Source of the DNA: an archaeon 13_2_20CM_2_53_6
GTDB lineage: Archaea > Thermoproteota > Bathyarchaeia > 40CM-2-53-6
Assembly (NCBI GenBank): GCA_001915065.1
Contig: MNDT01000061.1
Coordinates: forward strand, 2,954-66,953
Length of the DNA stretch: 64,000 nucleotides
Reading direction: 5' to 3'
Below the pieces are notes generated by a model. The model saw only the letters and a program-made list of their open reading frames with translations, ran no database searches and was not told where the DNA came from. Positions 7,502 through 61,089 of this stretch are shown piece after piece. Both the position numbers and the translations under genes were made by a program. The number at the start of each line of letters is the position of its first letter. The first letter of the stretch is position 1.

Positions 7502-7743
7502 CCAGCGTCTCGACACACACCCTTAGGCCTTGTAGCTTCGGTCGATGAGCGGCCTCGCCAGAGGATTGGTTCTAGGCACCCGGAGTCGAACGGAGGGTGC
7601 TTCTTGTTTTGTAATGGCAAGCCATACGTGAACATGAACTCATTTATTGAGGCGATAAATGCGCACAACTCTGGAGGCATGGCTACCTGACGAATCTAAA
7701 GGGACTACTGCTAGCCGGGGGACATGGTACCCGACTCCGTCCC

Positions 7744-8763
7744 TTGACCTATACGGGAAACAAGCACATGCTTCCCATCGCCAACAAGCCGATGCTCATG
7801 TACGGCTTCGACCAGATCAGAGTCGCAGGGATCAAAGAGATCGGAGTCATACTCGGACCCCTACAAGAAGGCATAGTGGAAGCTCTCGGAGACGGCTCGA
7901 AATATGACGTCAAGATTACCTACATCGACCAGCCTGACCCGAAAGGCATAGCCCATGCAGTCCTGATCTCACGCGGCTTTCTAGGAGACTCTCCCTTCGT
8001 GGTGCACCTTGGCGATAACTTGTTGAAGGACAGTGTTCCTGAACTAGGACAGGAATTTCTCAAGTCAGACTCTGACGCGACTGTTGTATTAACCAAGGTG
8101 AAGGATCCGAGCAGGTTCGGCGTCGTCCAGATAGAGAACGGAAGAATCGTTAAGCTAGTGGAGAAGCCGAAGGAATACATTAGCGACCTTGCTTTGGCCG
8201 GGGTCTACTTCTTCCGACCTAGCATATTCGCGGCCATTGAGAAGCTGAAGCCGAGTTGGAGGAATGAGTTGGAGATCACAGATGCGATACAAAAGCTGTT
8301 AGATATGGGGGGAAAGATTGGCTATCACGAAGTATCAGGCTGGTGGAAGGATACGGGAAGACCTGAAGATATTCTGGAGGCCAATCAGCTTGTGTTGAGA
8401 GATTTGAAACTACTCGTCGAGGGCAAGATCGAGAAGGGCGTTTCGGTTTCGGGAAATGTGGAAGTTGGCGAAGGGTCCATTGTACACACTGACACAGCAT
8501 TGCGCGGGCCCGTTATCGTAGGTGAGAATTCTGAGATCGGGGACGGGGCACGCGTGGGACCCTATACCTCCATTGGGAGCAGAGTAAAGATTCTTGGAGC
8601 TGAGATTGAGAACAGCATAGTTCTCGACGGAACCGTAGTGAATTGTAGGGAAAGGATTACGGATAGCATTATCGGGAAGAATTCACGGATTGTTTCAGAT
8701 CCCGCCCACCAGTCGGCAGGAAGAAAGTTCGTGGTGGGCGAAAGCACTTTCGTGAGCCTCTAG
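7744..8763 (+). CDS. Sugar-1-phosphate nucleotidyltransferase with C-terminal left-handed beta-helix (archaeal long-form RmlA-like glucose-1-phosphate thymidylyltransferase); true start lies upstream
   Basis: The GLLLAGGHGTRLRPLT pyrophosphorylase signature is encoded at 7699-7743, upstream of the called TTG and in the same frame. An ATG at 7679 sits in the +1 frame as ATG-GCT-ACC-TGA, so a -1 shift at ACC/CTG would give MATLTNLKGLLLAGG. The C-terminal hexapeptide repeats form an LbH domain. Co-located with rmlB/C/D. Confidence 0.7.
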   Translation: MTYTGNKHMLPIANKPMLMYGFDQIRVAGIKEIGVILGPLQEGIVEALGDGSKYDVKITYIDQPDPKGIAHAVLISRGFLGDSPFVVHLGDNLLKDSVPELGQEFLKSDSDATVVLTKVKDPSRFGVVQIENGRIVKLVEKPKEYISDLALAGVYFFRPSIFAAIEKLKPSWRNELEITDAIQKLLDMGGKIGYHEVSGWWKDTGRPEDILEANQLVLRDLKLLVEGKIEKGVSVSGNVEVGEGSIVHTDTALRGPVIVGENSEIGDGARVGPYTSIGSRVKILGAEIENSIVLDGTVVNCRERITDSIIGKNSRIVSDPAHQSAGRKFVVGESTFVSL

Positions 8764-10257: not shown

Positions 10258-11265
10258 TCACCACTCTTCCTTCCATGGGAGCTCTGAAAGAACCTTCTCA
10301 GTCGCCAAATGCCCCCACCAAGAAGAGTGTTCACGATACCAATTCACAGTCCTCGTTAATGCGGCGTCAAATTCGATTGCGGGCTTCCATCCGAGCTGGC
10401 GACGTGCCTTTGCGGAGTTCAGGCTGTATCTGAAATCGTGCCCCGGCCTGTCATCAACTTCAACTAACTCGGCCGAGGGAATGTCAAGCAAACGAAGCAA
10501 ACGTTGCGCCAGGTCTCTATTCGACAATTCATTTCCAGCAGAAATGTTGTACACTTGCCCCGGATCTCCTTTCTGTATCGCGAGCTCTATTGCGGCACAG
10601 AAATCATCCACGTATATCCAATCTCGAATTTGTCTTCCCCCACCGTAGATGGGAATGCCCTTTCCTCGTATGGATCGAATGATGGCTTTGGGAATGAACT
10701 TCTCGGGGTGTTGCCAAGGTCCGAAGTTGTTCGTACACCTAAGAATAACTGTTTGAAGCTTGTATGTCGCGGCCCAAGCACACACGATTAGGTCGGCGGC
10801 GGCTTTGGTTGCCGAGTAAGGGCTGGACGGATTAAGGGGACTCTCTTCGTCAAAAGACCCACGGTCGATCGATCCATAGACCTCATCCGTCGAAATATGC
10901 ACCAACCTGTCAACGTTCACCTCATTAGCAGCTCTAACGAGGTTGAAGACTGCCCTAGCGTTGCTCTCAAAGAATGGCTCTGAGTTCGCAATGCTTCTAT
11001 CCACATGAGTCTGGGCTGCAAAGTTCACGATTAAGTTAGCATTCTTCACGACTCGCCGAGTGAACTCATAGTCGGCGAGGTCCCCTTTGACGAAATGGTA
11101 ACGCTTGTCTTCGCTAATGTCTTGAAGACTTGCACGGTTGCTTCCGAGACTTTCGTTATCGATGTTAGTGACCCTGAGGTTCTTACGAGAGGATCGAAGC
11201 AGACGATGAACGAAGTTGCTTCCAATGAAACCTAGACCTCCAGTTACAATGATTTGATCTGTCAA
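10258..11265 (-). CDS. rmlB: dTDP-glucose 4,6-dehydratase
   Basis: Rossmann TGGLGFIGSNF, catalytic YSATKAA (YxxxK), and other RmlB-typical blocks (ISTDEVYG). Confidence 0.85.
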   Translation of the reverse strand: MTDQIIVTGGLGFIGSNFVHRLLRSSRKNLRVTNIDNESLGSNRASLQDISEDKRYHFVKGDLADYEFTRRVVKNANLIVNFAAQTHVDRSIANSEPFFESNARAVFNLVRAANEVNVDRLVHISTDEVYGSIDRGSFDEESPLNPSSPYSATKAAADLIVCAWAATYKLQTVILRCTNNFGPWQHPEKFIPKAIIRSIRGKGIPIYGGGRQIRDWIYVDDFCAAIELAIQKGDPGQVYNISAGNELSNRDLAQRLLRLLDIPSAELVEVDDRPGHDFRYSLNSAKARRQLGWKPAIEFDAALTRTVNWYREHSSWWGHLATEKVLSELPWKEEW

Positions 11266-11364
11266 ATAACGGTGGCCTCTGTCATTCCGGTCATGGCACT
11301 TTCAGCCACTCGCTGCCTTTCACTCAAGCTTGAAAAGGCATGCATCCTGTGTTGTGTTTCGCTC

Positions 11365-12288
11365 TTGGACAAGCTTCTTGTCGTTGGTTCCACTGGGTTA
11401 GTAGGATCGAAAATTGCCTCTTTGGCTCATGGTTATGAATTTGAGACGTATAACACTCATAACTCCAGACCTTCGCCCTTTCCAAACTCGACAAAGCTCG
11501 ACATTACGGACCGAGACGCCACTATGACTTTATTGGCCAAGATCCGCCCTTATGCGATAATCAACGTTGCGGCCCTGACAAATGTGGACTATTGTGAGAC
11601 TCATAAGGAAGAAGCTGAACGGGTTAACGTTGGCGGGGCTACGAGCCTAGCTGATGCGGCGCGTCAGAACAACAGCAGATTTGTCCACGTATCAACCGAC
11701 TCGGTGTTCGATGGAACGTATGGCCACTACACTGAAGACGATATGCCCAATCCGATCAACCACTATTCGAAGACTAAGCTGGATTCCGAGACTGTTGTAG
11801 CTCAGCTCTTGAGCTACGCGATTGCTAGACCTAGCGTCGTTTATGGTTGGCATGCTCGGGTTGGTAGAACACCTTCCGGTTCGACGAAAGCGATGAACTT
11901 TGCCATGTTTGTTTTGGACAGGCTCGGCAAGAGTGAGCCGGTTAGGGTCGTTAGAGACCAGTATAGTTCTCCCACGTTTGCAGACAACTTGGCTCATTCA
12001 CTGCTCAGACTCGCAAGGCTAACCGAGAATGGCATCTTTCATACGGCAGGCAGGTCATGTCTTAGCCGCTACGAGTTTGCCCTATTGTTGGCCAAGATTT
12101 TCGGGTACCCGCCTGATTTGGTGCAACCTGTCTCTACTGGTGAATTCGATCAGGCGGCCCAAAGGCCAAAGAATTGCTGCCTCCGAGTCGAGAAGGCGGA
12201 GAAGGCCCTAAAAATGCACTTTCTAACTGCGCAAGAGGGATTGATTGAGATGAAGAAACAGGCCCGGTCCAAGCCCAATGACCGTTGA
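11365..12288 (+). CDS. rmlD: dTDP-4-dehydrorhamnose reductase
   Basis: N-terminal LLVVGSTGLVG Rossmann motif and YSKTKLDSE (YxxxK). A TTG start at 11365 is likely. The ORF-track start at 11254 would overlap the divergent rmlB by 12 nt. Confidence 0.7.
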   Translation: MDKLLVVGSTGLVGSKIASLAHGYEFETYNTHNSRPSPFPNSTKLDITDRDATMTLLAKIRPYAIINVAALTNVDYCETHKEEAERVNVGGATSLADAARQNNSRFVHVSTDSVFDGTYGHYTEDDMPNPINHYSKTKLDSETVVAQLLSYAIARPSVVYGWHARVGRTPSGSTKAMNFAMFVLDRLGKSEPVRVVRDQYSSPTFADNLAHSLLRLARLTENGIFHTAGRSCLSRYEFALLLAKIFGYPPDLVQPVSTGEFDQAAQRPKNCCLRVEKAEKALKMHFLTAQEGLIEMKKQARSKPNDR

Positions 12289-20334: not shown

Positions 20335-20680
20335 GCAAGAATACGGAGTTTTCCGGCTAAACGCACAATGAAGGCTGAGATTCTCCATTTTAGGGAGAAA
20401 CTTTACGAGATGGTCAAGCTCTAAACTATTCACGTTCGACCTAGCTGTCGTGCACCCTGACTCGTTTTTATGTATTACACCTGTCCTTAAGGAATATTGA
20501 GCCTACCAAGAGCCTCACACTGAAGAAGTCTCAAATGCAGCAAGGACTTTCAACCCTGGAAAAGCGTCACTCGTATGATACGAAAGAGAGCGAGGAATTG
20601 GCAGGCCCAGGCGTAGTGGCTTTCGAAATCGAGACCGCTATCCTTCGCCTCTTTCTGCCGCTGGTAATCGGAGCGTTCAT

Positions 20681-21301
20681 ATGAAGAGAACAAGAACAAT
20701 GAAAGTCTTCAGAGTTGTTCCGAAGTTCAGGCCCCCGGAAACATACTCGGAGAGCGTCGCGAGAATCGTCAATCCGGTCCTCGACAGCTACACGCACATA
20801 GCCATAGTCGATGACGACACGTCCGTTCCTGAAGCGTTTTTCCAATTACCGGAGGAATATCCGGACGCGGACATCATAGTTCCGAGAGTTCTTCCAAGCT
20901 CCAGGATATACAGAACATGGGAAACGCTAACCTACTGGCTCCGTCTAAGCCGTGTGAGAGCCAGAGGCTGCGCTGTCATATACTCCACGAGATTTCTCAA
21001 ACGGATGGGAGGATATCCCTCCTGGACAGAACAGTATGAGGACACGTACATCCTGAGGAAGGCGAACGCCGTCGTCCAATACAAGAAGATGATAGCTTAT
21101 CACATGGAAAAGTTCAGCATTCGAAAGTCCATAGAAAGGCAGAAGAGGCAAGGCAGAGCGAGGGCGAAACTTCACGACAGTTTCTGGAGAGTCTTAGCGC
21201 ACTCCATCGTGAGGGTCAGGCCAGCGCTTTTCTTCGCCTACGTAGGTCAGAGAATTAGCAGCCCGACCCACAAAGTCGAAGGGCCGGATCACGGACAATA
21301 G
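20681..21301 (+). CDS. Hypothetical protein with a GT-A-like acidic motif (HIAIVDDDTSVP); has a decayed paralog at 22284-22695
   Basis: 206-aa ORF with no confident family assignment. A paralogous fragment lies downstream. Confidence 0.4.
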   Translation: MKRTRTMKVFRVVPKFRPPETYSESVARIVNPVLDSYTHIAIVDDDTSVPEAFFQLPEEYPDADIIVPRVLPSSRIYRTWETLTYWLRLSRVRARGCAVIYSTRFLKRMGGYPSWTEQYEDTYILRKANAVVQYKKMIAYHMEKFSIRKSIERQKRQGRARAKLHDSFWRVLAHSIVRVRPALFFAYVGQRISSPTHKVEGPDHGQ

Positions 21302-28157: not shown

Positions 28158-28642
28158 TCAGAATCCTCTCCGGTCACAGACTCCTCTTCGCCATCCTCGG
28201 CAACCTCGACTTGTTCAGTTGGCTCCTCAACTGGAGTTTCAGTAGGGACAGGTTCCCTTTCCTCGACCCTCTCAGCTACTGGTCGACTCTCTCCCTTTCC
28301 AGGGTTTGCGATATGAAAATTCTGCTCTTTCGCCTTGGCGACGATCCCTATCCGCTTTCTCTCGCCAACCCGCGCGGCGATCCTGATGATGTGTATCTTC
28401 GCATCGAGCTTCTCGAGTTCTGACTCGCGCCACACGAGATGTTCGACCAGCCCTCTGGGATGGAGGCCTCTCGCGGATGCGATGGATCCGTACCCCACCT
28501 TTACTTTCGGAGGGAACCCGCTCTCCTCCTTCCGCATCTTACTCGTGACCCCACGCGGTCGACGCCAGTTTTCCGCCACTCTCCTGTACCGCCAGCTCTC
28601 CTGGCGCTTGAATTCGGGCTTTGAACTCTTCATCATTCTCAC
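28154..28642 (-). CDS. rpl32e: 50S ribosomal protein L32e (eL32) with acidic C-terminal tail
   Basis: KPEFKRQESWRYRRV...WRRPRGVTSKMR. Confidence 0.8.
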   Translation of the reverse strand: MRMMKSSKPEFKRQESWRYRRVAENWRRPRGVTSKMRKEESGFPPKVKVGYGSIASARGLHPRGLVEHLVWRESELEKLDAKIHIIRIAARVGERKRIGIVAKAKEQNFHIANPGKGESRPVAERVEEREPVPTETPVEEPTEQVEVAEDGEEESVTGEDSE

Positions 28643-29130
28643 TTTGACGGGCTATGCGGCGAATGCGCGGGCCCTTTTGCGGAGATGTAGATTCCGTCCA
28701 GGAAGACCCGCAGATCCTTCTCCTTGATCCTGGTGCTATCCTGAATATTCGCAGCCGTCTGGCTTACAGATTTCAGGTCTACCCCTTCAACTGATATGTC
28801 ATCGCCCTTGATGGCAACTTTCACTCCTTCCAGGATCCTCGCGTATCTGGGGGTTTTCTCGCCTGTGAAGTTCTCGATCTTCAAGACCTTCGCCTTCTCG
28901 TCCACTTTGACGGTTACTGGAAAGTGGGCGTAGACCGTCCGCAGATCGTACTTGTAGCCCTGCGTGACCCCTTTGATCATGTTTCTGACATGGGCGGCGG
29001 CGGTTCCCAGCATTCCAATCTCTCGCTTCCGCGGCCACACGGTCTGTAGCCGGACCTGGTTCTGTTCGACGCTGAGTGAGACTGGCAGGTGTGAAAGGTC
29101 CTCGACGAGGGCGCCTAGTGGGCCCTTCAC
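28639..29130 (-). CDS. rpl6p: 50S ribosomal protein L6 (uL6); N-terminus probably extends upstream of the called GTG
   Basis: Two L6 repeats. The in-frame upstream sequence (to ~29215) encodes ...VPENVSVQIEGRIVKVKGPLGAL, which matches the L6 N-terminal strand, but no ATG/GTG/TTG is available there. Confidence 0.8.
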   Translation of the reverse strand: MKGPLGALVEDLSHLPVSLSVEQNQVRLQTVWPRKREIGMLGTAAAHVRNMIKGVTQGYKYDLRTVYAHFPVTVKVDEKAKVLKIENFTGEKTPRYARILEGVKVAIKGDDISVEGVDLKSVSQTAANIQDSTRIKEKDLRVFLDGIYISAKGPAHSPHSPSK

Positions 29131-29224
29131 TTTTACAATTCGGCCCTCTATTTGTACGCTGACGTTTTCTGGTACCTGAAGGGTTCTCTGAAGAGTCTCA
29201 AATCGTGCCGTGGATCCTCGCCCT

Positions 29225-29608
29225 CTAGAAGACGTATCCGAGGAGTTGTCCGCCTGAGCCCGCTTCGCGTGCCTCTTTGTGTGCCAAGACTCCTTTCGGG
29301 GTTGTCAGTATGAGGATGCCGACATCTCGCGAGGGAAGGTATCGTCTGCCCCATTTTTCGAATTCGCCTATTGTGGTGGAGAATCTTGGTCGTACGCTGC
29401 CGCAGTTGTTGACCCGTCCTAGGAGCTGGATCTTGAATTTTCCTCCTCTGCCGTCGTCCACGAACTCGAACTCTCCCACGTAGCCATATTTCTGCATGAC
29501 CCGGAGAACCTGGCCCATCAGTTTGGATGCGGGATAGACGATACACTCGTGCTTGTGTCTCCGCTCGTTGTTGAGGATGGATGAGAACATGTTTGATATT
29601 GGTTCCAT
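29225..29608 (-). CDS. rps8p: 30S ribosomal protein S8 (uS8)
   Basis: ISNMFSSILNNERRHKHECIV...GGQLLGYVF. Confidence 0.85.
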   Translation of the reverse strand: MEPISNMFSSILNNERRHKHECIVYPASKLMGQVLRVMQKYGYVGEFEFVDDGRGGKFKIQLLGRVNNCGSVRPRFSTTIGEFEKWGRRYLPSRDVGILILTTPKGVLAHKEAREAGSGGQLLGYVF

Positions 29609-31080: not shown

Positions 31081-31452
31081 CTATTCCTCCGCGCTCTTTG
31101 CCTTCTCGGACAATATTCCGCTCCGCCACTTGTCGGATAGGTTCAGTTCGGTAATGAGCACCTTGCTGGAATGTACTGGAAGCTTTGATGAGACCCCCGC
31201 GGCCTTTTCTCGTGTCATTCCTTCGACGAAGATCCTTCCGGTAGAATATTCCACTCGCTCGACTTTTCCTTCAAGTCCTGCGAATTCTCCCCGCATTATG
31301 CGTACTCTGTCGCCGGTTCTGAGTGGGACCCGTCTGATTCTGTGTCTACCGGTCAGATCGTTTGAGAGTCGAGCTGAGAGCCTTCTCCGTTGTCTGTGCT
31401 TCGGTGCCTGGAAGAGGAGTTTTCTCTGTTTTGACGGCTTTGAGCTTCTCAT
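31081..31452 (-). CDS. rpl24p: 50S ribosomal protein L24 (uL24)
   Basis: KOW motif (RTGDRVRIMRGEFAGLEGKVERV). Confidence 0.85.
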   Translation of the reverse strand: MRSSKPSKQRKLLFQAPKHRQRRRLSARLSNDLTGRHRIRRVPLRTGDRVRIMRGEFAGLEGKVERVEYSTGRIFVEGMTREKAAGVSSKLPVHSSKVLITELNLSDKWRSGILSEKAKSAEE

Positions 31453-39071: not shown

Positions 39072-39464
39072 TCATTTTGGGCTGTGAAGGCCGCCCCCTC
39101 GAACAGCCTCAGACCGAACCTTCTTCGGACGCTCAAACCTAGTCTCCTCTAGAACTATTCCATTGCGTATAGCGTCCTTCACGTAGGTGCTTCTCTGTCG
39201 AAGCTTTCGAAACTCTTCGACCGTGTAGCCGAAGGCTTCTAAGGGGATCCTGTTCTTCCATTCCTTCTGAAGATAGCGCAGTCTCTCGGGGACCGGCATG
39301 GCGGAGAAGCCGTCGGAGACGATTATCAGGTCTATGTCACTATCCTCCAGATAAGTTCCGGAGGCCCAAGAGCCGGTCAGTATCACCTTGTTGATCGTCA
39401 TGTTTCGGGCCAGCCGTTGAATGTATTGCCTGGTTATTCTCTTGATATTCTTCTCTTTAGCCAT
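39072..39464 (-). CDS. Minimal nucleotidyltransferase (MNT, Pol-beta superfamily), partner of the HEPN protein
   Basis: GSWASGTYLEDSDIDLIIV (GS...D.D catalytic motif). Confidence 0.7.
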   Translation of the reverse strand: MAKEKNIKRITRQYIQRLARNMTINKVILTGSWASGTYLEDSDIDLIIVSDGFSAMPVPERLRYLQKEWKNRIPLEAFGYTVEEFRKLRQRSTYVKDAIRNGIVLEETRFERPKKVRSEAVRGGGLHSPK

Positions 39465-39850
39465 CGGACGAGTTCTCCCACTTCTCTGAGATATCTCTGG
39501 GCCTGCTCCTTTTTGAATAGTGTCCCCGGTGCCCCGAGAGCAGCGTCTGGGTATTCGGATGGGAGATAGAGAGGGGAAAGATCGTCCAGCGTTCTGATCA
39601 GCTTCGGGGATAGTTTCGCCTGTCGAGCAACCATTGCGTGAAGCCGGACCAGGTTGTGGCCGCTGGCCCCTCTCGGGGGCCTCTTCCTCTCAGAGAGGAT
39701 TGCCGCTTTCAGCGCCTTTTCCGCAGAGTTGTGCAGGACATGGATGCATTTGCTGTACTTTCCACCCTTGAAGAGAAGCTGGGCGGACTCGTAATCATCG
39801 ATCGCAGCCTCCAGCCACCATCCCGCGTCTTCGCGGACCGCCCTAGCCAA
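39434..39850 (-). CDS. HEPN-domain protein (HEPN-MNT toxin-antitoxin-like module)
   Basis: R-x4-H motif (RGASGHN) in a helical ~130-aa protein; overlaps the downstream MNT gene by ~30 nt. Confidence 0.65.
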   Translation of the reverse strand: MARAVREDAGWWLEAAIDDYESAQLLFKGGKYSKCIHVLHNSAEKALKAAILSERKRPPRGASGHNLVRLHAMVARQAKLSPKLIRTLDDLSPLYLPSEYPDAALGAPGTLFKKEQAQRYLREVGELVRWLKRRISRE

Positions 39851-43205: not shown

Positions 43206-43664
43206 TCATCTCTCCACATAGTCGCCCAGAACAATTATCTGCAGCTCGCTGACTCTCTTCAGTTTGTCGTCATTGGTAACGAAGCCGGTTGCGCGGTTTG
43301 AGAGTGCGGTGCCAATCTGGATAGCGTCCGGCGGTTTGAGGCCATAGGCGGCTCTTAGGTCCGAAGCCCTCTCTGCACAATTATCATCTATCGGTTTCAA
43401 CGCGAGATTTGGGAAGGTCTTTAGAAGGAATCTGTAGTCTTCGGCCGCTTGCATGTTTCCGATCTGCTTTGGCCTGACGAGCACTTCCATCAACGTGAGG
43501 GTGGAAGTGAGGGCCTTGAGGCTGCCGTTCTCAACCTCCTCGAGTAGCCGGAGTGTCAGTTTGGAATACTCCGGATCCTTCTCGAGATGGTAGATGAAGG
43601 GTGAAGTGTCGATTCCGACCAGCTTGTGCCTGGCTAGGCTTTTGAGGAGGCCTCTCTCGCCCAT
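43206..43664 (-). CDS. vapC: PIN-domain ribonuclease toxin VapC
   Basis: VGIDTSPFIY and the conserved acidic residues (D..E..D..D). Confidence 0.75.
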   Translation of the reverse strand: MGERGLLKSLARHKLVGIDTSPFIYHLEKDPEYSKLTLRLLEEVENGSLKALTSTLTLMEVLVRPKQIGNMQAAEDYRFLLKTFPNLALKPIDDNCAERASDLRAAYGLKPPDAIQIGTALSNRATGFVTNDDKLKRVSELQIIVLGDYVER

Positions 43665-43891
43665 GATTCTCGCTCCTTCCTCACGTACTCATCTGGCTTG
43701 ACGCCCTTCCAGACATCCTTGTGCAACCCTAGCATGTGCCTAGCATAACTGCGCGGCCGGGGCTTGATCATAACCTTCCCCTTCTCAACCTCGACAACCA
43801 GTTCGTCCCCAGCGCCGACTCCTAACGCTTCCCGGGCCTCTCGCGGGACCACGACCTGGTGTTTCCGGCTCACCCTTACGATGGAGCCCAT
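43634..43891 (-). CDS. vapB: AbrB/SpoVT-family antitoxin VapB
   Basis: VSRKHQVVVPREAREALGVGAGDELVVE; sits upstream of vapC and overlaps it. Confidence 0.65.
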   Translation of the reverse strand: MGSIVRVSRKHQVVVPREAREALGVGAGDELVVEVEKGKVMIKPRPRSYARHMLGLHKDVWKGVKPDEYVRKERESWAREASSKA

Positions 43892-44426
43892 GTAACAATC
43901 ACTTTACTCTTATGGGCGACGCTTTACAATAAACATTCCGCTTTACCCTTAATCCCGGCATGAGGTATCCGTTTCTCCGCGAAATCCCGAAAATAATTCG
44001 TGCGCGCTTATCGGCATGACTCGAAATAAGAGTTTAGCGAAGTAGCGGTTTACCGTAACCTTCTAGACTTATCTGAGAATGACTCGATCTTAGTCTCGAT
44101 CAAGGCGCGTCTATCTGGACTCGTTTGAGGCAGAATCCAAACGGTCACGATTCACAATCCGAGAAGTACTAAGCGCTGCGACTCATGGAGGAAGGCTGTG
44201 GACCCCGGCATCCGTCGTCCTGGGCGAGAATCGGGTCCGGGTTGTTACAAATGAAGGGTCTCTCGAACTGCGACCACGCAGGCTCGTATGGACCGAGCCT
44301 AACAGTTTTCGCATCACCGGACTCAGTAGACGCCTAGCCTTTCGACGCAGCCATCTGCGATTCAAGAGTCCCGAGGAAGCGTCTCGGGCCGCGTCGATCA
44401 TCAAGCAGAATTCCACAGTTCTGGAA

Positions 44427-44900
44427 GTGCCGTGGGTCCCGGTCGAGGAGTTCCCCGTGCAAGTCCGACTAATGATCACTGCGAGGTACGTGGTTCTCCT
44501 AGCCTATGTTGCCTTTTGGAACGTGCTTGTCGGACTATTTCTATTGCTCGTGCTAGGCGCTCTCGGGACATTCGGACTCGTAGCCGGAGTAGTAGCACTC
44601 ATGGGTTACTCAGGATTCCCGCTATGGATAGCAATCGCGCGAACGAGAAGGAAGACCCACGGCTGGCTCAGGATTCAGGGCAGATCGGTTGTCGTGCGAA
44701 GTCTAGATTGGATACCCGTCTTTCCGAAATTGATTGAATGGAAAAGCCCTCAGGTCATTGTTCTTAGAGGCCGGGGGATAAGCTATGAACTGTCCTTTCT
44801 GACCAGTGAGAGTCTAACCCGAGCGGTAGCGAGGATAAGAACCGCCTATCCCGGGGTCCAAGAAATTCTCGCTGAGACGTACATGCAAGATTCACGATGA
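44427..44900 (+). CDS. Membrane protein, hypothetical; its 3' end is duplicated 8.3 kb downstream
   Basis: Two TM helices. The C-terminal 45 codons plus ~15 bp of 3' flank recur at 53081-53253. Confidence 0.35.
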   Translation: MPWVPVEEFPVQVRLMITARYVVLLAYVAFWNVLVGLFLLLVLGALGTFGLVAGVVALMGYSGFPLWIAIARTRRKTHGWLRIQGRSVVVRSLDWIPVFPKLIEWKSPQVIVLRGRGISYELSFLTSESLTRAVARIRTAYPGVQEILAETYMQDSR

Positions 44901-49129: not shown

Positions 49130-51178
49130 TTGGGCTACAGAGTGGCAGTAGACGTCGGTGGCACGTTCACTGACCTGTGCGCCCTTAATGAAGAAACTGG
49201 AGAACTTGTTTTCGTCAAGGACTCTACCACACCAGCAAACTTCGCGCACGGGGTCGTCCAGGTCATCCGGAAGAGCGGACTCAAAAAAGAGGACTTTACC
49301 AGTTTCCTCGGAAACGGTTCAACTATCGTCATCAATGCGATTACTGAGCGGAAAGGAGCGAAGACAGGCCTCATCACCACGAAGGGGTTCAGGGACGTCC
49401 TGGAGATCCAGAGGTCCAACAGGACTGACATGTACAATTTCAGATATGAGAAGCCGAGACCGTTTGTTCCCCGGCATCGCGTCTTCGAAGTGGATGAGCG
49501 GCTCGACTTTCAAGGGAACGTCCTCAAGGCGCTTGACGAGAAGAGCGTCCAGACCGCTCTCGAGAATTGCAAGGGATTTGGTGTGGAGTCGTTAGCGGTT
49601 TGTCTTTACAACTCTTACAGTAATCCGGAGCACGAGGAGGTGATTGGCGAGGCAGCGAGGAAAATTCTTCCTCAGGTTCCTGTGACTCTCTCACATGAGC
49701 TGACGAGAGAGTGGAGAGAGTATGAGCGGATGAACACGGCTGTGATGAACGCATTCGTCCAACCGGTAGTCGACCTGTACTTGAGCACCTTGACCTCGGA
49801 ACTTCGAAAGATGGGCGTGACGATTCCATTGCACGTGATGCAGTCGAACGGCGGCGTCTCGACCTTTGATCGAGCTCGGGAGATTCCTATCTATCAAATT
49901 GAATCAGGTCCGATCGGCGGGATAATTGGAGCCACTTTTCTCGGCAGAGTGATCGGCGAGCCCAATGTCCTCTCACTGGACGTAGGAGGCACGACGGCGA
50001 AGACATCGCTCGTGGATGATGGAGAGGTGAAGGTCAACACGGATTACAAGGTCGCTAGGTCGGCTTTCTCTTCCGGCTATCCTGTGAAGGTGCCGGTTGT
50101 CGATATAGTCGAGATCGGGGCAGGGGGAGGGAGCATAGCTTGGGCCAACGAGGTCGGGTCGTTGAACGTGGGTCCTCAATCGGCTGCAGCCGACCCTGGA
50201 CCCGCCTGCTACGACAGGGGCGGAAAGAGCCCCACAGTCACAGACGCTTTCCTCTTGACAGGAGTAATCGATCCTGACTACTTCTTGGGCGGAGAGATCA
50301 AGCTGCAAAAGTCAAGGTCAGAAGAGGCGTTCAAGGAACTGGCATCGACACTGGGCAGATCCCTCAGAGATGCGGCCATCGGCACGATACAGGTGGCCAT
50401 TGCTAACATGATCAACGCGCTCAAGCTGGTTTCGGTCCGGAGAGGCTACGATCCGAGGGATTTCGCAATGGTGGCTTTTGGTGGAGGGGGTCCCATGTTT
50501 GCAACAGCGTTGGCGAGAGAGCTGGGCGTTGAGAGAGTAATCGTGCCGCGTGTTCCAGGGGTCTTCTCTGCGCTTGGTATGCTTCTGACGGATCTTCGGC
50601 ATGACTTTCTCCAAACGAGGGTGCTTAGGCTGTCCCAAGAGGCTCTGAAAGAAGCCTTGGGTGTTGGAGAGGGATTCAGAGAGGAGGCTGTGAAGAGGTT
50701 TGAAGAAGAGCGTGTGTTGTTAGCGGATGTCTGGCACGAGCTCTCATTCGACCTTAGATACCTAGGCCAGGAGCACACGGTCAACGTTCCAATAGACTGG
50801 AAAGATTCCGTGGCCGACGTAGAGAAGAAATTCCATGATCGTCATTTCAAAGAGTACACCTTCAAGCTAACGGATCCCCTGGAGATCGTGAACATTCACG
50901 TTGCATCCTACGGCAAGGTGAAGAAACCCCGGCTCAAGAAGTACAAAGCGTCAGGCGCGGTCGGCGACGCCCTAAAGGGGAAGAGAAACGTGGTCTTCGA
51001 AAACGGGAAGCTCGTACGGATCCCCGTCTTCCAACGGGACAAGCTACCGTCAAAGAATCGTCTCAAGGGACCCGCGATCATAGAGGAGCCTACTTCTACA
51101 ACCATCTTGCGTCCCGGCGACAAGCTCATGGTCGATGATTATGGAAATCTCATGATCAGTATCCCGGGAAGCGGTTGA
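49130..51178 (+). CDS. hyuA: Hydantoinase/oxoprolinase family protein, A subunit (N-methylhydantoinase A-like)
   Basis: N-terminal VAVDVGGTFTD (ASKHA fold) and the conserved hydantoinase A blocks (LDVGGTTAK...). Confidence 0.85.
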   Translation: MGYRVAVDVGGTFTDLCALNEETGELVFVKDSTTPANFAHGVVQVIRKSGLKKEDFTSFLGNGSTIVINAITERKGAKTGLITTKGFRDVLEIQRSNRTDMYNFRYEKPRPFVPRHRVFEVDERLDFQGNVLKALDEKSVQTALENCKGFGVESLAVCLYNSYSNPEHEEVIGEAARKILPQVPVTLSHELTREWREYERMNTAVMNAFVQPVVDLYLSTLTSELRKMGVTIPLHVMQSNGGVSTFDRAREIPIYQIESGPIGGIIGATFLGRVIGEPNVLSLDVGGTTAKTSLVDDGEVKVNTDYKVARSAFSSGYPVKVPVVDIVEIGAGGGSIAWANEVGSLNVGPQSAAADPGPACYDRGGKSPTVTDAFLLTGVIDPDYFLGGEIKLQKSRSEEAFKELASTLGRSLRDAAIGTIQVAIANMINALKLVSVRRGYDPRDFAMVAFGGGGPMFATALARELGVERVIVPRVPGVFSALGMLLTDLRHDFLQTRVLRLSQEALKEALGVGEGFREEAVKRFEEERVLLADVWHELSFDLRYLGQEHTVNVPIDWKDSVADVEKKFHDRHFKEYTFKLTDPLEIVNIHVASYGKVKKPRLKKYKASGAVGDALKGKRNVVFENGKLVRIPVFQRDKLPSKNRLKGPAIIEEPTSTTILRPGDKLMVDDYGNLMISIPGSG

Positions 51179-51180
51179 GG

Positions 51181-52917
51181 ATGGTCAGGAAGGGAGTTAC
51201 CGAAAGTTTCACCTTGGACATTATCCAGAACTCGCTCATTACTGCCGCCGAAGAGATCTTCGCCGTCTTCGGCCGCACGAGCAAGAGCCCAGTCATCTAC
51301 GAAGTTCTCGATTACGCTTGCGGCTTGACCGACAACCAGGGGAGGATGATTGCGCAAGCGAACGGGGTCCCGGGGTTTCTTGGAACGCTCGACATGGCCG
51401 TCGTCCAAGCGATAAAGAAGTTCGGTCTGAACGGATTTCACAACGGAGACATAATCATAACGAACATTCCCTATACGGACGGGACGCATCTCAATGATGT
51501 TACTCTGATCATGCCCATCTACTATCGTGACGAGATCGTAGCCTTCTCTGCAAACAAAGGGCACTGGAGCGAGGTGGGAGGGATGCACTTTGGCAGCTGG
51601 ACATCAGATTCGACCGAGATCTACCAGGAAGGCCTCCAGTTCCCAACGATCAAACTGTTCAGCAAAGACAAGCCCGTCCAAGAGGTGATCGACATCATCC
51701 GGGCAAACGTAAGGACCCCGACGATGACGCTGGGCGATATGGAGGCCCAGGCCGCGTCCCTGAGAGTGGGGCGAAGACGGGTCCAGGAACTCTGCGACAA
51801 GTACGGGGGTAGGGTCGTTGAGAACGCGATGGAGAGGCTCATCGAGCAAGGAGAGGAACTGATGCTCAAGCGGCTTCGAGAACTGCCACATGGCACGTTC
51901 ATGGCAGAGGATTGGGTTGACGATGATGGGATCACAGACAATCCCGTGCAGGTGAAGGCGAAGGTTGAGATCAGCGATCAGAGCTTCACGATCGACCTTA
52001 CCGGGTCAGGGGCTCAAGCGAAGGGATCAATCAATTCTCCCTGGGTAGCCACGGTCTCGGCCGCCAGAACCATCCTCAAGGCGGTTACTGATCCGCACAT
52101 GCCGGTGACTGATGGTAGCTTCCACCCATTGAAGATCGTCGCGCCGGAGGGTACGATATTCAACCCCAAACCTCCAGCACCCACGTCCACGTACTGGGAG
52201 GCAATGGCCTTTGTGACCGACCTGGTCTGGAAGGCACTCGCGCCAGTGGTGCCTGATAGGCTGACTGCAGGTCACTTTCTGAGCGTCTGCGCGACCATCG
52301 TCGGCGGCATAGACGACAGGTCGAAGGAGCCGTTTGCCATCGTCGAGCCGCAGGCCGGTGGCTGGGGGGCCGGGAAGGGAAAGGACGGTGAGAGCGGGCT
52401 TGTCTGCAGCGGCGACGGCGAGACATACATCATGTCTAATGAGGTGATCGAGGTCCGCCATCCAATCATAGTGGAACAGTACTCGCTCAACGTAGAAGAT
52501 GGCGTGTCTCACGGAGAGTTCAGGGGTGGCTTCGGTCTCGTCAAAGACTATCGGATCAACAACTCCAACGCGACCTTCACCGCATCCTTCGGGAGATCGA
52601 AGTATCCTCCATGGGGAATGAACGGAGGAGACGGCGGAGGACCCAACTACTTCATCATCTACAAGTCAGGAAGAGAGCCTTTCAAGACAAGAAAAGTCGC
52701 AGCTGTCGAACTTGGAAAGGGAGACTTGATCAGGCTGAAGACCGGGCGTGGGGGAGCATACGGGAATCCGCTCGATAGAGACCCGAAACGCGTCGCTGAC
52801 GATGTCCGAGACGGATACTTGACGCCGGAAACTGCGAAAGAGAAGTATGAAGTCGTTCTTCCCATAGACTTGGACCCCGACCAGAGGAGAACCGAAACAA
52901 CACGAAAGAGTCGGTGA
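51181..52917 (+). CDS. hyuB: Hydantoinase B/oxoprolinase family protein, B subunit
   Basis: The hydantoinase B signature region (DYACGLTDNQGRMIAQANGVPGFLG...) follows hyuA with a 2-nt gap, typical of A/B pairs. Confidence 0.85.
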   Translation: MVRKGVTESFTLDIIQNSLITAAEEIFAVFGRTSKSPVIYEVLDYACGLTDNQGRMIAQANGVPGFLGTLDMAVVQAIKKFGLNGFHNGDIIITNIPYTDGTHLNDVTLIMPIYYRDEIVAFSANKGHWSEVGGMHFGSWTSDSTEIYQEGLQFPTIKLFSKDKPVQEVIDIIRANVRTPTMTLGDMEAQAASLRVGRRRVQELCDKYGGRVVENAMERLIEQGEELMLKRLRELPHGTFMAEDWVDDDGITDNPVQVKAKVEISDQSFTIDLTGSGAQAKGSINSPWVATVSAARTILKAVTDPHMPVTDGSFHPLKIVAPEGTIFNPKPPAPTSTYWEAMAFVTDLVWKALAPVVPDRLTAGHFLSVCATIVGGIDDRSKEPFAIVEPQAGGWGAGKGKDGESGLVCSGDGETYIMSNEVIEVRHPIIVEQYSLNVEDGVSHGEFRGGFGLVKDYRINNSNATFTASFGRSKYPPWGMNGGDGGGPNYFIIYKSGREPFKTRKVAAVELGKGDLIRLKTGRGGAYGNPLDRDPKRVADDVRDGYLTPETAKEKYEVVLPIDLDPDQRRTETTRKSR

Positions 52918-53080
52918 GGGCTCGGTTCTCAGCGGACTAGAACAATCCCCTATAGGATTCATCGATCTGAACACGATCACGGAATCCTCCGCAGATCTTG
53001 TCTCCCAGGCGAACTCGAACGAACAGGCACAGGAGAGTTCTTCGCAGAATACAGCCTCAACGTCGAACCACAAGCAGCTA

Positions 53081-53253
53081 GGAAAGCCTCGGGTCATTCC
53101 TCCTAGACGCCGCGGGACCACGTACGAACTGTCCTTTCCAACTACTGAAAGTCTAACCCGAGCGGTTACGAGAACAAGAGCCGTATACCCGGGAGTCCAA
53201 GAGATTCTCGGTTAGACGTACAGGCAAGATCCAAGGTGATTCCAGGTTGATGG
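53081..53253 (+). repeat. Direct repeat copy B: truncated, stop-containing duplicate of the 3' end of gene 44427-44900
   Basis: Encodes ...RRGTTYELSFPTTESLTRAVTRTRAVYPGVQEILG* with no upstream ORF; similarity continues past the stop. Confidence 0.6.
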
Positions 53254-54335
53254 TATCAGAGCGTAACTGGACGACCTCAACAAGATAGACCGGCTGCAGC
53301 TGCCATGAATCGAGAACGCAAAACGAAGACACGACTGGACCAGACGCCTATGGCCCATGCCGGACATGAGCGAAAGAATCCAGAACCTAACATTGGACTA
53401 ATTATCTCTCATGAGTCTCAGGAACTGAAATAACTAGAAGACGACCAAACCAGTTATCTGACACGGGTCGAAATACCAGTCCGGGCAGTTCTGCGTCGCG
53501 AGACCAGCACGCATACCCTATTTTTCGAGACGCTCTATTGCTAGTCGGATCTTTACAGGGACCCATCAAGAATCCTGTTCGCGTCTCTCTAAGGTCAAGC
53601 CGATCTTATCACTGACATAGACGGCTAGGCCGTTTTCTAGGCGTTTTCCTTTGCACCCTCAGGGTCAGCAGCGTCTCCAGCCTCGGGGGTCTGATATCCT
53701 TCCGCCACGGAGATTGGTTACAGCATGCTGAAGCATCAAGACAGCGAGGGATCCAGATCGGCAAGGATTGAGCGAGATCGTCCATGACCTGGTGCGTCAA
53801 ATGCTCAGACTGCCCTTCGACGACGCCACCATAGTCTTCCACCTCAAATCGGCCAAGATTCGCAACGCGCAACAGATCCTGGACAGCGTCCTAGCAGAGG
53901 CCAAACAAGAAGCAATAGCCCAACTATCTTCCAGAAACCGCTAGATCAACGGATAGCGTCTTAGCAGTCAAATGCCAAGCAGGTCATTGAGACAGCAGAA
54001 GCCCAAGAGATCGTCTGCCGAGAATTCCACGAACAACTCTACGAAAATACCTCGACGCAACACGCGTGAAATGAGAAACATGGATCATCGACGGCGACCC
54101 TACTGCACCCACACGATCCCATGAACCTAAGACAGGTTGAACTGCAAGAAGTCTCGGAGATTGGGCTCGGAGACCTGATTCTCTTGATGACACTATCGCG
54201 ACGATTTTGCGTTCATCACTTGTGAGGGGTGTTGTAAAGATGATGTGTCAAGCACTTTCTGCAATGAATCCACGCTCCACACTTCCAACATTTCACCCAC
54301 TGAGATTTGCCTTCTTGTGGCAATGGTTCTGAGGA

Positions 54336-54698
54336 GTGTCTCTCCGATCGTCCGGGCATCGAATCTATACTGCTTTACCGCAAGGCTATTTTCGATTTGC
54401 TTTCGACTCGGCGAGGAGGTTCGCACGGAAGAACCTCGCAACACAGATCATAATCGCGAACGAGCAGACCCGGGACACTCTTCCTCCCTCCCGGGTCCAG
54501 ACAGAGTCTCGAAAGATCACGATAACCGAGCGAGGCTTGCAAGAGATCAGAACCGGCCGCTATGGAAGGGTCCAGCTGCCCAGCCAGGAAGAGGCCCGCT
54601 ACTGGCTCCAACAATGGCGTGAAGCCGCTATGCCCAAGGAAGAGGTTGTTGTACGCAAGAACTTGGTTCGGAGAAAACCACCAGAGGTGAGAGAATGA
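54336..54698 (+). CDS. Hypothetical protein (low confidence)
   Basis: 120-aa ORF. Its stop overlaps the next ORF start (ATGA at 54695), which suggests a two-gene unit. No homology was recognised. Confidence 0.2.
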   Translation: MSLRSSGHRIYTALPQGYFRFAFDSARRFARKNLATQIIIANEQTRDTLPPSRVQTESRKITITERGLQEIRTGRYGRVQLPSQEEARYWLQQWREAAMPKEEVVVRKNLVRRKPPEVRE

Positions 54699-54949
54699 CA
54701 AAGAACAAGACCCGAGAAGGACCACTACCGCCGCCCGATAAGGGAGTCAATGATGCGAGACCTGGACTGCCAACTCCAACAGTGCGGAAACCTGTTACCT
54801 GGGTCCAACCAGAACCAACGACAGCCGACGTTACGCGACCTCAACAGCTGAGCCCAGACACGACATGGGCCGAGCCCAGCGTCGCCAAGTCGAAGCTGGC
54901 AAGAGGGTCCCCAGGGCTCTCAACCACTAGGGACCAGACAAAAGAGTAG
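54695..54949 (+). CDS. Hypothetical Pro/Thr-rich protein (low confidence)
   Basis: 84 aa; composition-biased. Confidence 0.15.
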   Translation: MTKNKTREGPLPPPDKGVNDARPGLPTPTVRKPVTWVQPEPTTADVTRPQQLSPDTTWAEPSVAKSKLARGSPGLSTTRDQTKE

Positions 54950-55386
54950 GCACCAAACGATGGTCCGGTCCAAGTACGTTATTTGGTTGTCTTGTAGTTT
55001 GATTGCTAGTTCTTGTTCCATTCGTGAGGGGTTGGCGTGTAGTCGTTCGCGCCAGTCGCTCCGCTGACTCGACATCTGCAATCTTGAGCTAGGGTTCGGC
55101 TATTGCTCAGACACGAGAGCGAAACTGCCTGTACTCTCGTCCATCTCTCCAGACTAAGAACACAGAGGCCACCATCACCACTTCCATGGAGGCTGCAAGA
55201 CCCGCACGCGACACTGGTCTGTGCTTGAAGGCGTCCTCAGCCTCCTCCTGACCATCGAGTTGGTCCCTCAACCCTCAATCGATACAGCCTTGAAAAGTGT
55301 CTTGTGGAGACTGAGCTATGCAGGTGAAGGTGTCCTGCAGAGGAAGACTTACATGTATCCTGCATGTAATTTTAGATGGATACTAA

Positions 55387-55623
55387 ATGGAGCGCAAGGT
55401 GGCTCAGACGGAGCTTGAGCCTGCTGAGTATTCTACACTCGCGGCGACGGCCCGGAAGAAGGGCTTGACCATAAAGGAGGCACTGCGCGAGGCGGCTCTG
55501 CGGTGGAGCCAGGAAGAATCGGGAATAAACCCCAGCGATCCCATCTTCCACGTGAAGGCTCGGGATTGGGGCAGAGGCACAGAGAACGCCTCTAGAGAAG
55601 TGGACGAAACAGTGTACGGATAG
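55387..55623 (+). CDS. vapB: Type II antitoxin (VapB-like, putative RHH/Phd-type)
   Basis: 78 aa, immediately upstream of the PIN gene; LTIKEALREAALRW is a helix typical of small antitoxins. Confidence 0.5.
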   Translation: MERKVAQTELEPAEYSTLAATARKKGLTIKEALREAALRWSQEESGINPSDPIFHVKARDWGRGTENASREVDETVYG

Positions 55624-55635
55624 GAACAGCCTTCT

Positions 55636-56058
55636 TTGCGGCTCTTCATCGACACTGGACCCTTCATGGCCAGGCATAACAAGAGAGACAAGCAACATTC
55701 CTATGCCGTCCAATCATTCGACAAGATCAGAGATGGAGAGACGGCATACAGGAAACTCTACACCTCTGACTATATCCTGGATGAGGCTGTAACTGGATGC
55801 CGGCAGAGAACACACAACCACGGACTCTCAGTCGAACTCGGCACCCTCATCCTCTCCTCCGAATCACTTCTCATGCTCAGAGTTGACGAGGATACTCTCT
55901 TGGAGGCCTGGGAACTCTTCAAGTCGAGGAGAGAGATACCGCTCAGTCTGACCGACTGTACTTCTGCAATACTCGCGAGAAAACATGGAATAACAGACGT
56001 CTACAGTTATGACAGCGACTTTGAAGCGCTGGGTTTCAGGGTGCTCGCGCGACTCTAG
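55636..56058 (+). CDS. vapC: PIN-domain toxin VapC
   Basis: MRLFIDTGPFMA...D.E...TDCTS...SYDSDF: the four conserved acidic PIN residues. Confidence 0.7.
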   Translation: MRLFIDTGPFMARHNKRDKQHSYAVQSFDKIRDGETAYRKLYTSDYILDEAVTGCRQRTHNHGLSVELGTLILSSESLLMLRVDEDTLLEAWELFKSRREIPLSLTDCTSAILARKHGITDVYSYDSDFEALGFRVLARL

Positions 56059-56211
56059 CTCCGTTATCAGACGTTCAACCGTATTCTCGACTACCTGGAA
56101 AGCTCCAACAAGATCCTCCTTGACATGGGAGAGATTGTCTGGACCTTCCCCAATAATCCGAGACTGCGAAGACTGCTTAGAGAAAGTGTCCGGGTCTGAT
56201 AGACAGATCGC

Positions 56212-56412
56212 TCATTTCAATCGTTTTCGGAAGCTGGGTACGGTTATGCCGATGATTCTATCGCCTTTGTAGTGTAATATTATGTCATTGTTGAGTACGA
56301 TACTATCAGAGGCAGGCTTCGGTGGGCCGAAACTGATGTAGAGCACATCAGCCTCCTTATCATAGTCGACGTCCAGCTCCTCTACTTTGGAGATGGTCAA
56401 CGCTTTGGCCAA
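56212..56412 (-). CDS. DUF2283-family small protein (antitoxin-like)
   Basis: VDYDKEADVLYISFG is the DUF2283 hallmark. Confidence 0.55.
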   Translation of the reverse strand: MAKALTISKVEELDVDYDKEADVLYISFGPPKPASDSIVLNNDIILHYKGDRIIGITVPSFRKRLK

Positions 56413-56626
56413 ACTATCCCCCTCTTGTGATTCCTAACATCGGAAGAACCGCCGTTATCATAAAAGCTACCGACTTGCTGTCTGTCGACTCGCCCAGCAA
56501 ACTAAGTCTTGGCTAGTTTTTCCAAAAGCTCTCGGTCTTCTCGAAGAGCTTCTTCCATTGCTTGGTTGAACTCTTCGTCTGCGAATGTATCAGGCTTCTT
56601 ATTCTGCCCCAACATGTTCGTATACA

Positions 56627-57028
56627 CTATTCTCCTCTGTTCTCAGCTAAATTGGTTGCTATCCATTCTTCCACGCGGTCGAGTGAGATTCTGCCGGCTG
56701 CGATATCCGCTAGAAAGACATACGTCTCTTGAGATTTGGCTTTGATCTCATATCCATTCAGTCGGAGGAATAGTTTCACGAGTTCGAATGCTGTCCTCTT
56801 GTTTCCATTCACGAATGGGTGCTGTGAGATAAGATTGTAGAGTAGGAATGATGCTTTCCTCTTGACCGCGTGACGATCACCTGCGTTCCCGCCGATCTGT
56901 TTCACCGCTTCTAACACATATTCCAAATTGGACCTGCTGAGATCCCCGTGCTCGCCACCAGTCACGTCTAGGACACGATTGTGTAAGCGCTCAACCTGTT
57001 CTAACGAGGGGTACCTGATTCCCTTCAT
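56627..57028 (-). CDS. doc: Fic/Doc-family toxin (death-on-curing)
   Basis: Fic motif HPFVNGNKRTA. Confidence 0.8.
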   Translation of the reverse strand: MKGIRYPSLEQVERLHNRVLDVTGGEHGDLSRSNLEYVLEAVKQIGGNAGDRHAVKRKASFLLYNLISQHPFVNGNKRTAFELVKLFLRLNGYEIKAKSQETYVFLADIAAGRISLDRVEEWIATNLAENRGE

Positions 57029-60849: not shown

Positions 60850-61089
60850 TTGGGCCAGGTCGCGACGGTCACCAGCAAGAGCATGATAACCATCCCTGCA
60901 AAGATACGGCAGAAGTACGGCTTCAAGCAGGGGTCCAAGCTCGAGTTCATCGACACCGAGGAAGGCATACTCCTAGTCCCCGTCAAGACCCTGCGCGAGC
61001 TGAGGGGCGCGTTCAAGTCGCATGAGAAGATCATCCGGCAAGCCATCAAAGAAATGGAACGGGAGCACAGAGAGGAAGCCCGGACCTGA
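60850..61089 (+). CDS. vapB: AbrB/SpoVT-family antitoxin VapB
   Basis: SKSMITIPAKIRQKYGFKQGSKLEF. Confidence 0.65.
   Translation: MGQVATVTSKSMITIPAKIRQKYGFKQGSKLEFIDTEEGILLVPVKTLRELRGAFKSHEKIIRQAIKEMEREHREEART

Follow-up and report, generated by a model that had tools for sequence, protein, structure and literature searches.

NCBI translation table 11 includes CUG, AUU, AUC and AUA among its initiators, and in bacteria these codons are rarely used as such. CUG and ACG also belong to the near-cognate codons best tolerated by initiation machinery of the eukaryotic type, and in plant organelles C-to-U editing of the mRNA is known to create AUG start codons from ACG. Neither for archaea in general nor for Bathyarchaeota did literature searches turn up a report of initiation at CUG or ACG. 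A review of archaeal translation initiation names AUG, GUG and UUG only (PMC7531240), and ribosome profiling of Haloferax volcanii assigned about 30% of the putative alternative initiation sites to near-cognate codons, which were set aside as possible false positives (PMC7261190). Huber and others showed by experiment that, in Haloferax and E. coli, genes whose stop and start codons overlap by 4 nucleotides (nt) are translated in a coupled manner through termination-reinitiation; CUG goes unmentioned in their text (Huber et al., 2019; PMC6728339). The present analysis deals with four genes of a soil Bathyarchaeia archaeon that lie on a 64,000-nt stretch of contig MNDT01000061.1, hereafter the window: rmlA, the toxin gene vapC, a nucleotidyltransferase (NTase)-like gene, and rpl6, which encodes ribosomal protein L6. 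The first three probably start at CUG and the fourth at ACG, with help from the surrounding sequence.

Probable initiation codons of rmlA, vapC, rpl6 and an NTase-like gene

Open reading frames (ORFs) of the window were scanned from stop to stop, the orthologues of 40 window genes were scanned for start codons, and the position of each initiation codon was judged by the alignment column holding the initiator Met of the homologues. By ORF scan, orthologue scan and domain boundaries, none of the four genes has a canonical in-frame start anywhere from its upstream stop to its conserved domain. The non-canonical codon occupies the initiator column of the homologues in four of four cases, which is more than chance, and full-length models begin 5-13 residues after the CTG or ACG codon. 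Coding constraint starts at this codon in rmlA and is absent upstream, and purifying selection acts downstream of the NTase-like and L6 starts as well. Because purifying selection is seen from the odd codons onward, the segments appear to be translated, beginning at or next to these codons. Comparative genomics is the basis for the codon position, the conservation, the reproducibility across assemblies and the selection pattern reported below.

Much of this arrangement had been remarked upon in a sequence-only reading of the same DNA, according to which the RmlA signature is encoded upstream of the first TTG, with the ATG at 7679 in the +1 frame as the only nearby start; the vapC frame has no Met codon and opens at CTG 61086 inside the vapB stop; and CTG 62332 of the NTase-like gene overlaps the TGA of the ORF at 62093-62335. 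The sequence and the ORF scan bear out all of these statements. For L6, that reading had placed the N-terminal strand upstream of the called GTG with no start available, which holds for ATG, GTG, TTG and CTG; the ACG in the Met column of the homologues had escaped it.

The rmlA frame opens at 7651, after a TGA at 7648-7650, and its first ATG, GTG or TTG is the TTG at 7744, upstream of which GLLLAGGHGTRLRPLT is encoded. RmlA homologues of 358 amino acids (aa) begin MTSLKGLLLAGG or MSNVKGLLLAGG (MTSLKG, MSNVKG), and the window reads (CTG)TNLKGLLLAGG, with CTG in the Met column. Started at CTG, the protein matches TIGR01208 (rmlA_long) over its full length, with 434 bits against a cut-off of 320 and profile positions 1-352 on residues 5-357; its N-terminal peptide is predicted to be (M/L)TNLKGLLLAGGHGTR. 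The start region, including CTG, is identical or nearly so in at least 15 contigs from various samples and assemblers. When the region was compared across about 90 related loci, GTG, TTG or CTG was found in the start column, and ATG, TTG, GTG, CTG, CTA or CTC at a second possible start three codons downstream. CTG is the sole NTG codon at the rmlA start in at least four sequence contexts, which occupy at least five places on the protein tree. Among the CTG-only lineages, codons 2-39 carry 13-31 nt changes as against 0-3 amino-acid changes, with a nonsynonymous divergence (dN) of about 0.02-0.06 and a synonymous divergence (dS) above 0.6 and mostly saturated. The 30 nt 5' of the CTG differ at 15-25 positions between CTG-only contexts and at 1-8 within a context (4-8 in the group of relatives L091, L109 and L111).

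The CTG overlaps the TGA (7688-7690) of a three-codon mini-ORF. In the other CTG-only rmlA lineages an in-frame stop stands 4-7 codons upstream and no feeder ORF is present, and in L111 the CTG-only start is followed by G instead of A. The CTGA at rmlA arises because codon 2 is Thr or Ser, as in the homologues beginning MT or MS. In nearly all relatives (about 90 loci) an AAC(T/C)CATTTAT element is found about 40 nt 5' of the rmlA start, within a leader that is otherwise unconserved, and this element is likely the rmlA promoter, comprising a transcription factor B recognition element (BRE) and a TATA box. From the usual archaeal distance between TATA box and transcription start site, transcription would start near 7671-7675, giving a leader of about 12-16 nt. 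As a separate observation, the contigs L052 and L068 match the window at 95-97% up to position 8386, inside rmlA; beyond it L052 matches at about 84%, and for L068 no further alignment is listed. Because of this divergence, the RmlA proteins of the two are only 83-85% identical to that of the window despite a near-identical upstream region, and rmlA probably contains, at about 8386, the boundary of a recombined or variable segment.

At the second locus, an AbrB/MazE-type antitoxin gene stands directly 5' of a PIN-domain toxin gene, as in VapBC type II pairs. The vapC ORF (61026-61484) contains no ATG and holds an intact PIN reading frame of 132 codons. Read from stop to stop, the frame offers no canonical start before its codon 127, which corresponds to about residue 107 counted from the CTG. 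PF01850 matches VapC with E=2e-12, profile position 2 falling at residue 6, and both this match and that of PF04014 to VapB exceed the cut-offs. Homologues begin MKTTLVLDAG or MNERLVLDAG, and the window reads (CTG)KENLVLDAG, again with CTG in the Met column; the N-terminal peptide (M/L)KENLVLDAGVLALHFISNPK is predicted. The vapB/vapC junction is identical in five assemblies, and the toxin junctions taken together are so in five to seven, including two metagenome-assembled genomes (MAGs) from NCBI; over its last 6 kb or so (5.9 kb) the window matches NCBI contig MNKC01000023.1 (L148, GCA_001920575.1) at 99.9% identity. VapC relatives were taken from a search of representatives, as a combined query with VapC and the NTase-like protein gave NTase relatives only at E<=1e-5. 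One relative, at 54% identity, has a TTGA overlap at the junction; another, at 61%, retains both the CTG and an intact ORF, and there vapB and vapC share one frame with a TAG between them. In all seven related contigs vapC is uncalled.

The NTase-like protein has no Pfam or NCBIfam match, and its family profile matches PDB 8an4, an AbiEii/MenT-type toxin structure, with E=1.2e-5 over 143 positions. Its homologues begin MKTLTF, MSPRSF or VKTRSF, and in the window, (CTG)KTRSF, the CTG stands in the Met column. The exact 80-aa protein encoded upstream was found on seven contigs, and its counterpart in L154 and L156 shows a weak match to Rv0078B (PF18993). The CTGA overlap is retained in NTase relatives of 63-65% identity (L154-157), that is, in two lineages beyond that of the window, and the flanks of these junctions differ (gat ccg CTG AAG, ggt tca CTG AAG, aac ccg CTG AAA); a relative at 47% identity has GTGA instead. 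Codons 2-29 show a dN of 0.19-0.27 with a dS above 1.7, hence a dN/dS of about 0.1. A 4-nt stop/start overlap is thus present at vapB/vapC (61086-61089) and at the junction of the 80-aa ORF (orf80) with the NTase-like gene (62332-62335), and at neither rmlA nor L6, the latter having a 13-nt spacer.

In the rpl6 frame, no ATG, GTG, TTG or CTG occurs from the S8 stop to VPENVSV, and the first GTG is at 29130. Homologues of L6 begin MARFETLQRT and the window reads (ACG)ARFETLQRT, with ACG in the Met column; the relative L160 has ...AAGGTGAACCATC ATG GCT AGG TTT GAG, with ATG in the ACG column and the same 13-nt spacer after S8. Ten assemblies share the identical ACG region with the window, to which they are 94-96.6% identical at the nucleotide level elsewhere. 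Between the window and its sister strains, dN is 0.013 and dS 0.19 (dN/dS about 0.07), and the Pfam L6 domain starts at residue 13 of the ACG-started protein. Read-through of the S8 stop into L6 was considered and ruled out, L6 being in the +1 frame relative to S8.

Two relatives carry irregularities of their own near this gene. P0121, a short NCBI contig (1.9 kb, 98% identity to the window), bears a call for a 323-aa S8-L6 fusion that retains ...STARFETLQ; the fused call results from a frameshift in S8 close to its 3' terminus, probably an assembly indel. In L160 (3001-4061), the L6 call of 225 aa exceeds the expected length by about 35 aa and L32e has no canonical start, which is probably due to an indel at the L6/L32e junction of that contig.

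Table 1. Features at the four loci, in window coordinates. SD, Shine-Dalgarno.
Feature	Position	Strand	Details
Promoter-like element AACTCATTTATT, putative BRE/TATA box	7637-7648	+	Upstream of rmlA
SD-like GGAGG	7673-7677	+	9 nt 5' of rmlA CTG; duplex energy -9.3 kcal/mol (assumed anti-SD), one of the strongest values in the 40 genes
Mini-ORF ATG-GCT-ACC-TGA	7679-7690	+	Incidental, unconserved; ATG replaced by CAC-GG in L058 and L066, where CTG and the remaining region are retained
rmlA, glucose-1-phosphate thymidylyltransferase, long form	7687-8763	+	Start CTG 7687-7689; TIGR01208, homologue alignment
rpl6 (L6)	28639-29211	-	Start ACG 29211-29209; stop TGA overlaps L32e GTG start (GTGA)
SD-like GAGGATCC	29212-29219	-	Directly 5' of L6 ACG; contains GAGG; duplex energy -8.8 kcal/mol (assumed anti-SD)
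rps8 (S8)	29225-29608	-	Stop TAG 29227-29225, 13 nt 5' of L6 start; translation, gene calls in L137-146
vapB, AbrB/MazE-type antitoxin	60850-61089	+	TTG start; stop TGA 61087-61089; PF04014 E=6e-12, residues 4-47 of TTG-started protein; TIGR01439 also matches
vapC, PIN toxin	61086-61484	+	Start CTG 61086-61088; 4-nt CTGA overlap with vapB
80-aa upstream ORF (orf80), putative antitoxin	62093-62335	+	ATG start close behind TATA-like TTTTTATT; stop TGA 62333-62335
NTase-like gene, AbiEii/MenT-like toxin candidate	62332-62886	+	Start CTG 62332-62334; 4-nt CTGA overlap with TGA 62333-62335

Start-codon usage in the window and its relatives

Among the 40 confidently placed window genes, 21 start with ATG, 10 with TTG, 5 with GTG, 3 with CTG and 1 with ACG, so that about four in 40 are non-canonical. 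The median SD duplex energy, computed against an assumed anti-SD, is -8.35 kcal/mol at the four sites versus -5.05 kcal/mol at the 36 canonical starts (one-sided p=0.02).

Non-canonical starts recur in relatives, also at genes that are canonical in the window. The rmlB gene of L109 and L136 has CTG only, followed by G, in the context 'gat CTG gaa gat ct[ag] atc gt[ct] ac[tc] ggc ggt', and the window copy has TTG; a GHMP kinase gene in L001 has CTG and ATT only ('aggagg ttc CTG ATT CTG gag gtc cgt'), where the window copy has ATG. The window rmlB (10258-11301, minus strand), a 335-aa dTDP-glucose 4,6-dehydratase, is itself unusual in that it starts with TTG and has zero ATG codons and zero internal Met. 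Start codons turn over rapidly between close relatives, judging from L24 (window 31450-31452, minus strand), which has ATG in the window, L137 and L142, TTG in L141 and GTG in L160. The TTG start of rmlD (window 11365-12288) is retained in 40 of 47 distinct orthologous contexts, with ATG in six, and by this comparison TTG is a stable rather than a transient start codon of the lineage.

Stop/start overlaps of other types are also found in the window, namely ATGA (L32e/L19e), GTGA (L6/L32e) and TTGA (hyuA/hyuB). In the last case, the hydantoinase/oxoprolinase A (49130-51178) and B (51175-52917) genes may share the TTGA at 51175-51178, with an alternative ATG two codons downstream. The recurrence of one tetranucleotide, CTGA, had been singled out by the sequence-only reading, and it is present at three sites. 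That emphasis is justified only in part: at the toxin genes it is an ordinary NTGA overlap, at rmlA it follows from Thr at codon 2, and CTG starts followed by G exist, so by these comparisons CTGA is not required. An A follows the start codon in 15 of the 40 genes, and the chance of finding it at three of three is about 0.05.

Tentatively, the lineage may have relaxed start-codon fidelity, with some 5-10% of its genes using CUG, ACG or AUU and being systematically mis-annotated, although this broader claim is rather doubtful. Other candidate ORFs of the window (44094-44900, 56212-56433, 41425-31, 39072-689, 20579-21301 and more) have canonical starts or give no sign of a real N-terminal extension. 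S14 and L24, seemingly uncalled or truncated in relatives, were rejected as candidates, as both have canonical starts and their appearance reflects gene-caller behaviour only.

Elsewhere in the window, a minimal nucleotidyltransferase (PF01909, E=2e-9) adjoins a small overlapping ORF (39072-39464 and 39434-39850, minus strand), and the two may form a toxin-antitoxin pair of the MNT/HEPN type. A second AbrB/PIN pair lies at 43206-43903. The region 53000-57000 has few confident genes, and no Pfam match was obtained among the ORFs tested there. Scans of the window for tRNA genes and Rfam families gave no matches.

Proposed near-cognate initiation and its alternatives

From the sequence of these loci and their relatives we infer how the codons might be decoded, how efficiently, and how coupling might operate. 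The initiator tRNA most likely reads CUG and ACG with one mismatch, context compensating for the weak codon, and an SD-like motif probably aids at the four sites. At rmlA, initiation would be de novo, an SD-assisted CUG start with GGAGG on a short leader. At vapC and the NTase-like gene, the CUG overlapping the antitoxin UGA (CUGA) would be the C variant of the AUGA, GUGA and UUGA overlaps, and a ribosome terminating on the antitoxin gene could restart at the toxin CUG. If weak and strictly coupled, such a start would yield less toxin than antitoxin, and the conservation of the C would thereby find an explanation. Termination-reinitiation, which the sequence-only reading had put forward for the CTGA junctions, is accordingly plausible for the two toxin genes with their NTGA overlaps, and not for rmlA, where the mini-ORF is unconserved. 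For rpl6, where the ACG follows the S8 stop behind GAGG, reinitiation after S8 probably helps, and codon identity would then be less critical; alternatively, the lineage may tolerate near-cognate codons better. Given the heavy use of UUG and GUG and the free swapping of start codons, CUG would extend a relaxed first-position (NUG) rule.

Several points weigh against this account. In E. coli, CUG yields 1-2% and ACG 0.1-1% of AUG output (10.1101/063800), and it is difficult to see how so poor a start as ACG could meet the demand for L6, a ribosomal protein needed in stoichiometric amounts, unless translation is coupled or the lineage tolerates such codons. The L6 ACG is known from one species-level cluster only. 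In the 61% vapC relative, GTG and TTG occur 5-6 codons 3' of the CTG, which there need not be the start. Several canonical window genes have weak SD motifs, the anti-SD behind the duplex energies is an assumed sequence, and the 40-gene census includes canonical starts that are assigned provisionally.

Of the competing explanations, translation from the next canonical codon is very unlikely. It would yield N-terminally truncated proteins (a 331-aa RmlA and a 163-aa L6) and make vapC a dead gene, and public gene calls do take this form (P0001, P0056, P0172), including the uncalled vapC of the seven related contigs. Such truncation, however, would deprive RmlA of its GxGTR nucleotide-binding loop and the first L6 domain of 15 residues, and the segments at issue are under strong purifying selection, as the substitution patterns of RmlA (0-3 amino-acid versus 13-31 nt changes) and the NTase-like protein (dN/dS about 0.1) attest; nor does vapC look dead, with its 132-codon PIN ORF intact both here and in the 61% relative. 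C-to-U editing of the mRNA, turning CUG into UUG and ACG into AUG as in plant organelles, is extremely unlikely, even though each of the four codons equals a canonical start of the lineage but for a single C in place of U, and editing, if true, would remove the puzzle of a stoichiometric ribosomal protein with a genomic ACG start. Neither C-to-U editing of mRNA nor a machinery for it is known in archaea; no common sequence or structure motif was noticed around the four sites; T-to-C transitions are what most often turns UUG or AUG into a near-cognate codon; and the ATT of the L001 GHMP kinase gene, which has ATT and CTG, is not fixable by C-to-U changes.

A programmed -1 frameshift at C-TGA, by which ribosomes leaving the mini-ORF, vapB or orf80 would produce MAT-LTNLK... 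or antitoxin-toxin fusions, is scarcely credible. At each of the three CTG sites of the window an upstream ORF does end in a TGA that is offset by one base from the downstream frame; but the junctions (GCT ACC TGA, CGG ACC TGA, ATC CGC TGA) contain no slippery heptamer X-XXY-YYZ, the codon before the stop varies by lineage (CGC, CAC and CGC at the NTase-like gene; ACC versus GGT at vapC), and in the 61% vapC relative the two genes are in one frame with the TAG between them. At rmlA, the ATG at 7679 is gone in L058 and L066, and a frame-0 ATG at 7659 is gone in L061, with CTG retained, and other CTG-only lineages lack such an upstream ORF, whereas the toxin genes do have conserved ones. Least probable of all are sequencing or assembly errors, whether single-base C deletions or substitutions, that would conceal canonical or fused genes (vapB-vapC, orf80-NTase). 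ACCTGA could derive from ACCCTGA, and indel artefacts do occur in these data, the S8-L6 fusion of P0121 being one that stems from an S8 frameshift. The junctions are nonetheless identical in independent assemblies from various studies and assemblers (at least 15 for rmlA, ten for L6, five to seven for the toxins), and the VapC and NTase homologues are stand-alone proteins starting at the CTG column; L6 would need a substitution instead of an indel, and its ACG persists across about 5% nucleotide divergence. In diverged relatives the orthologous junctions show separate overlapping ORFs with TTGA, GTGA or CTGA. Both frameshifting and C-homopolymer deletions with fusion proteins had been entertained in the sequence-only reading, and both are to be set aside; CUG initiation, which it had also named, is the best-supported explanation for rmlA, vapC and the NTase-like gene, by virtue of the Met column, conservation and selection.

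Significance and relation to described systems

Gene callers limited to ATG, GTG and TTG cut the catalytic loop from RmlA and the first strand from L6, and miss vapC; many of the 331-aa RmlA entries are probably such truncated calls. If 5-10% of the genes in these abundant soil archaea were affected, inventories of metabolism and of toxin-antitoxin systems drawn from MAGs would be biased. Across about 35% protein divergence one CUG start has been kept, and an ACG start stands on an essential ribosomal protein gene; if the near-cognate reading is true, these naturally selected CUG and ACG starts would offer concrete material for work on archaeal start-codon fidelity and reinitiation. Of the three CUG genes, two encode toxins (the NTase-like one a candidate) and have a start that lies over the antitoxin stop, which suggests a simple means of limiting toxin synthesis below that of the antitoxin.

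Judged from sequence comparison, the CUG and ACG starts appear to be a variant of known near-cognate initiation, one not found described for archaea. They resemble the rare starts of bacteria in that a single-mismatch codon stands at the initiator Met position behind an SD-like motif and is rare relative to AUG, GUG and UUG. They differ in belonging to an archaeon with eukaryotic-type initiation factors, in being far more frequent (about 4 of 40 genes in one window), and in being conserved or recurrent across lineages, including ACG on a ribosomal protein gene. Like the AUGA pairs of termination-reinitiation, vapB/vapC and orf80/NTase run in one direction, overlap at NUGA and carry an SD-like motif within the upstream gene, and their orthologous junctions are UUGA or GUGA; unlike in that system, the overlapping start is CUG and the coupling is proposed from sequence, while rmlA has no conserved upstream ORF and L6 has a 13-nt spacer. 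The resemblance to plant-organelle editing, where likewise a genomic ACG stands in a conserved essential gene at the place of the homologues' ATG, is a resemblance only. Near-cognate initiation in eukaryotes involves scanning and Kozak context and gives mostly alternative isoforms; in contrast to those sites, and to the near-cognate sites of Haloferax, the codons described here are the sole available starts of conserved genes, one of which is essential.

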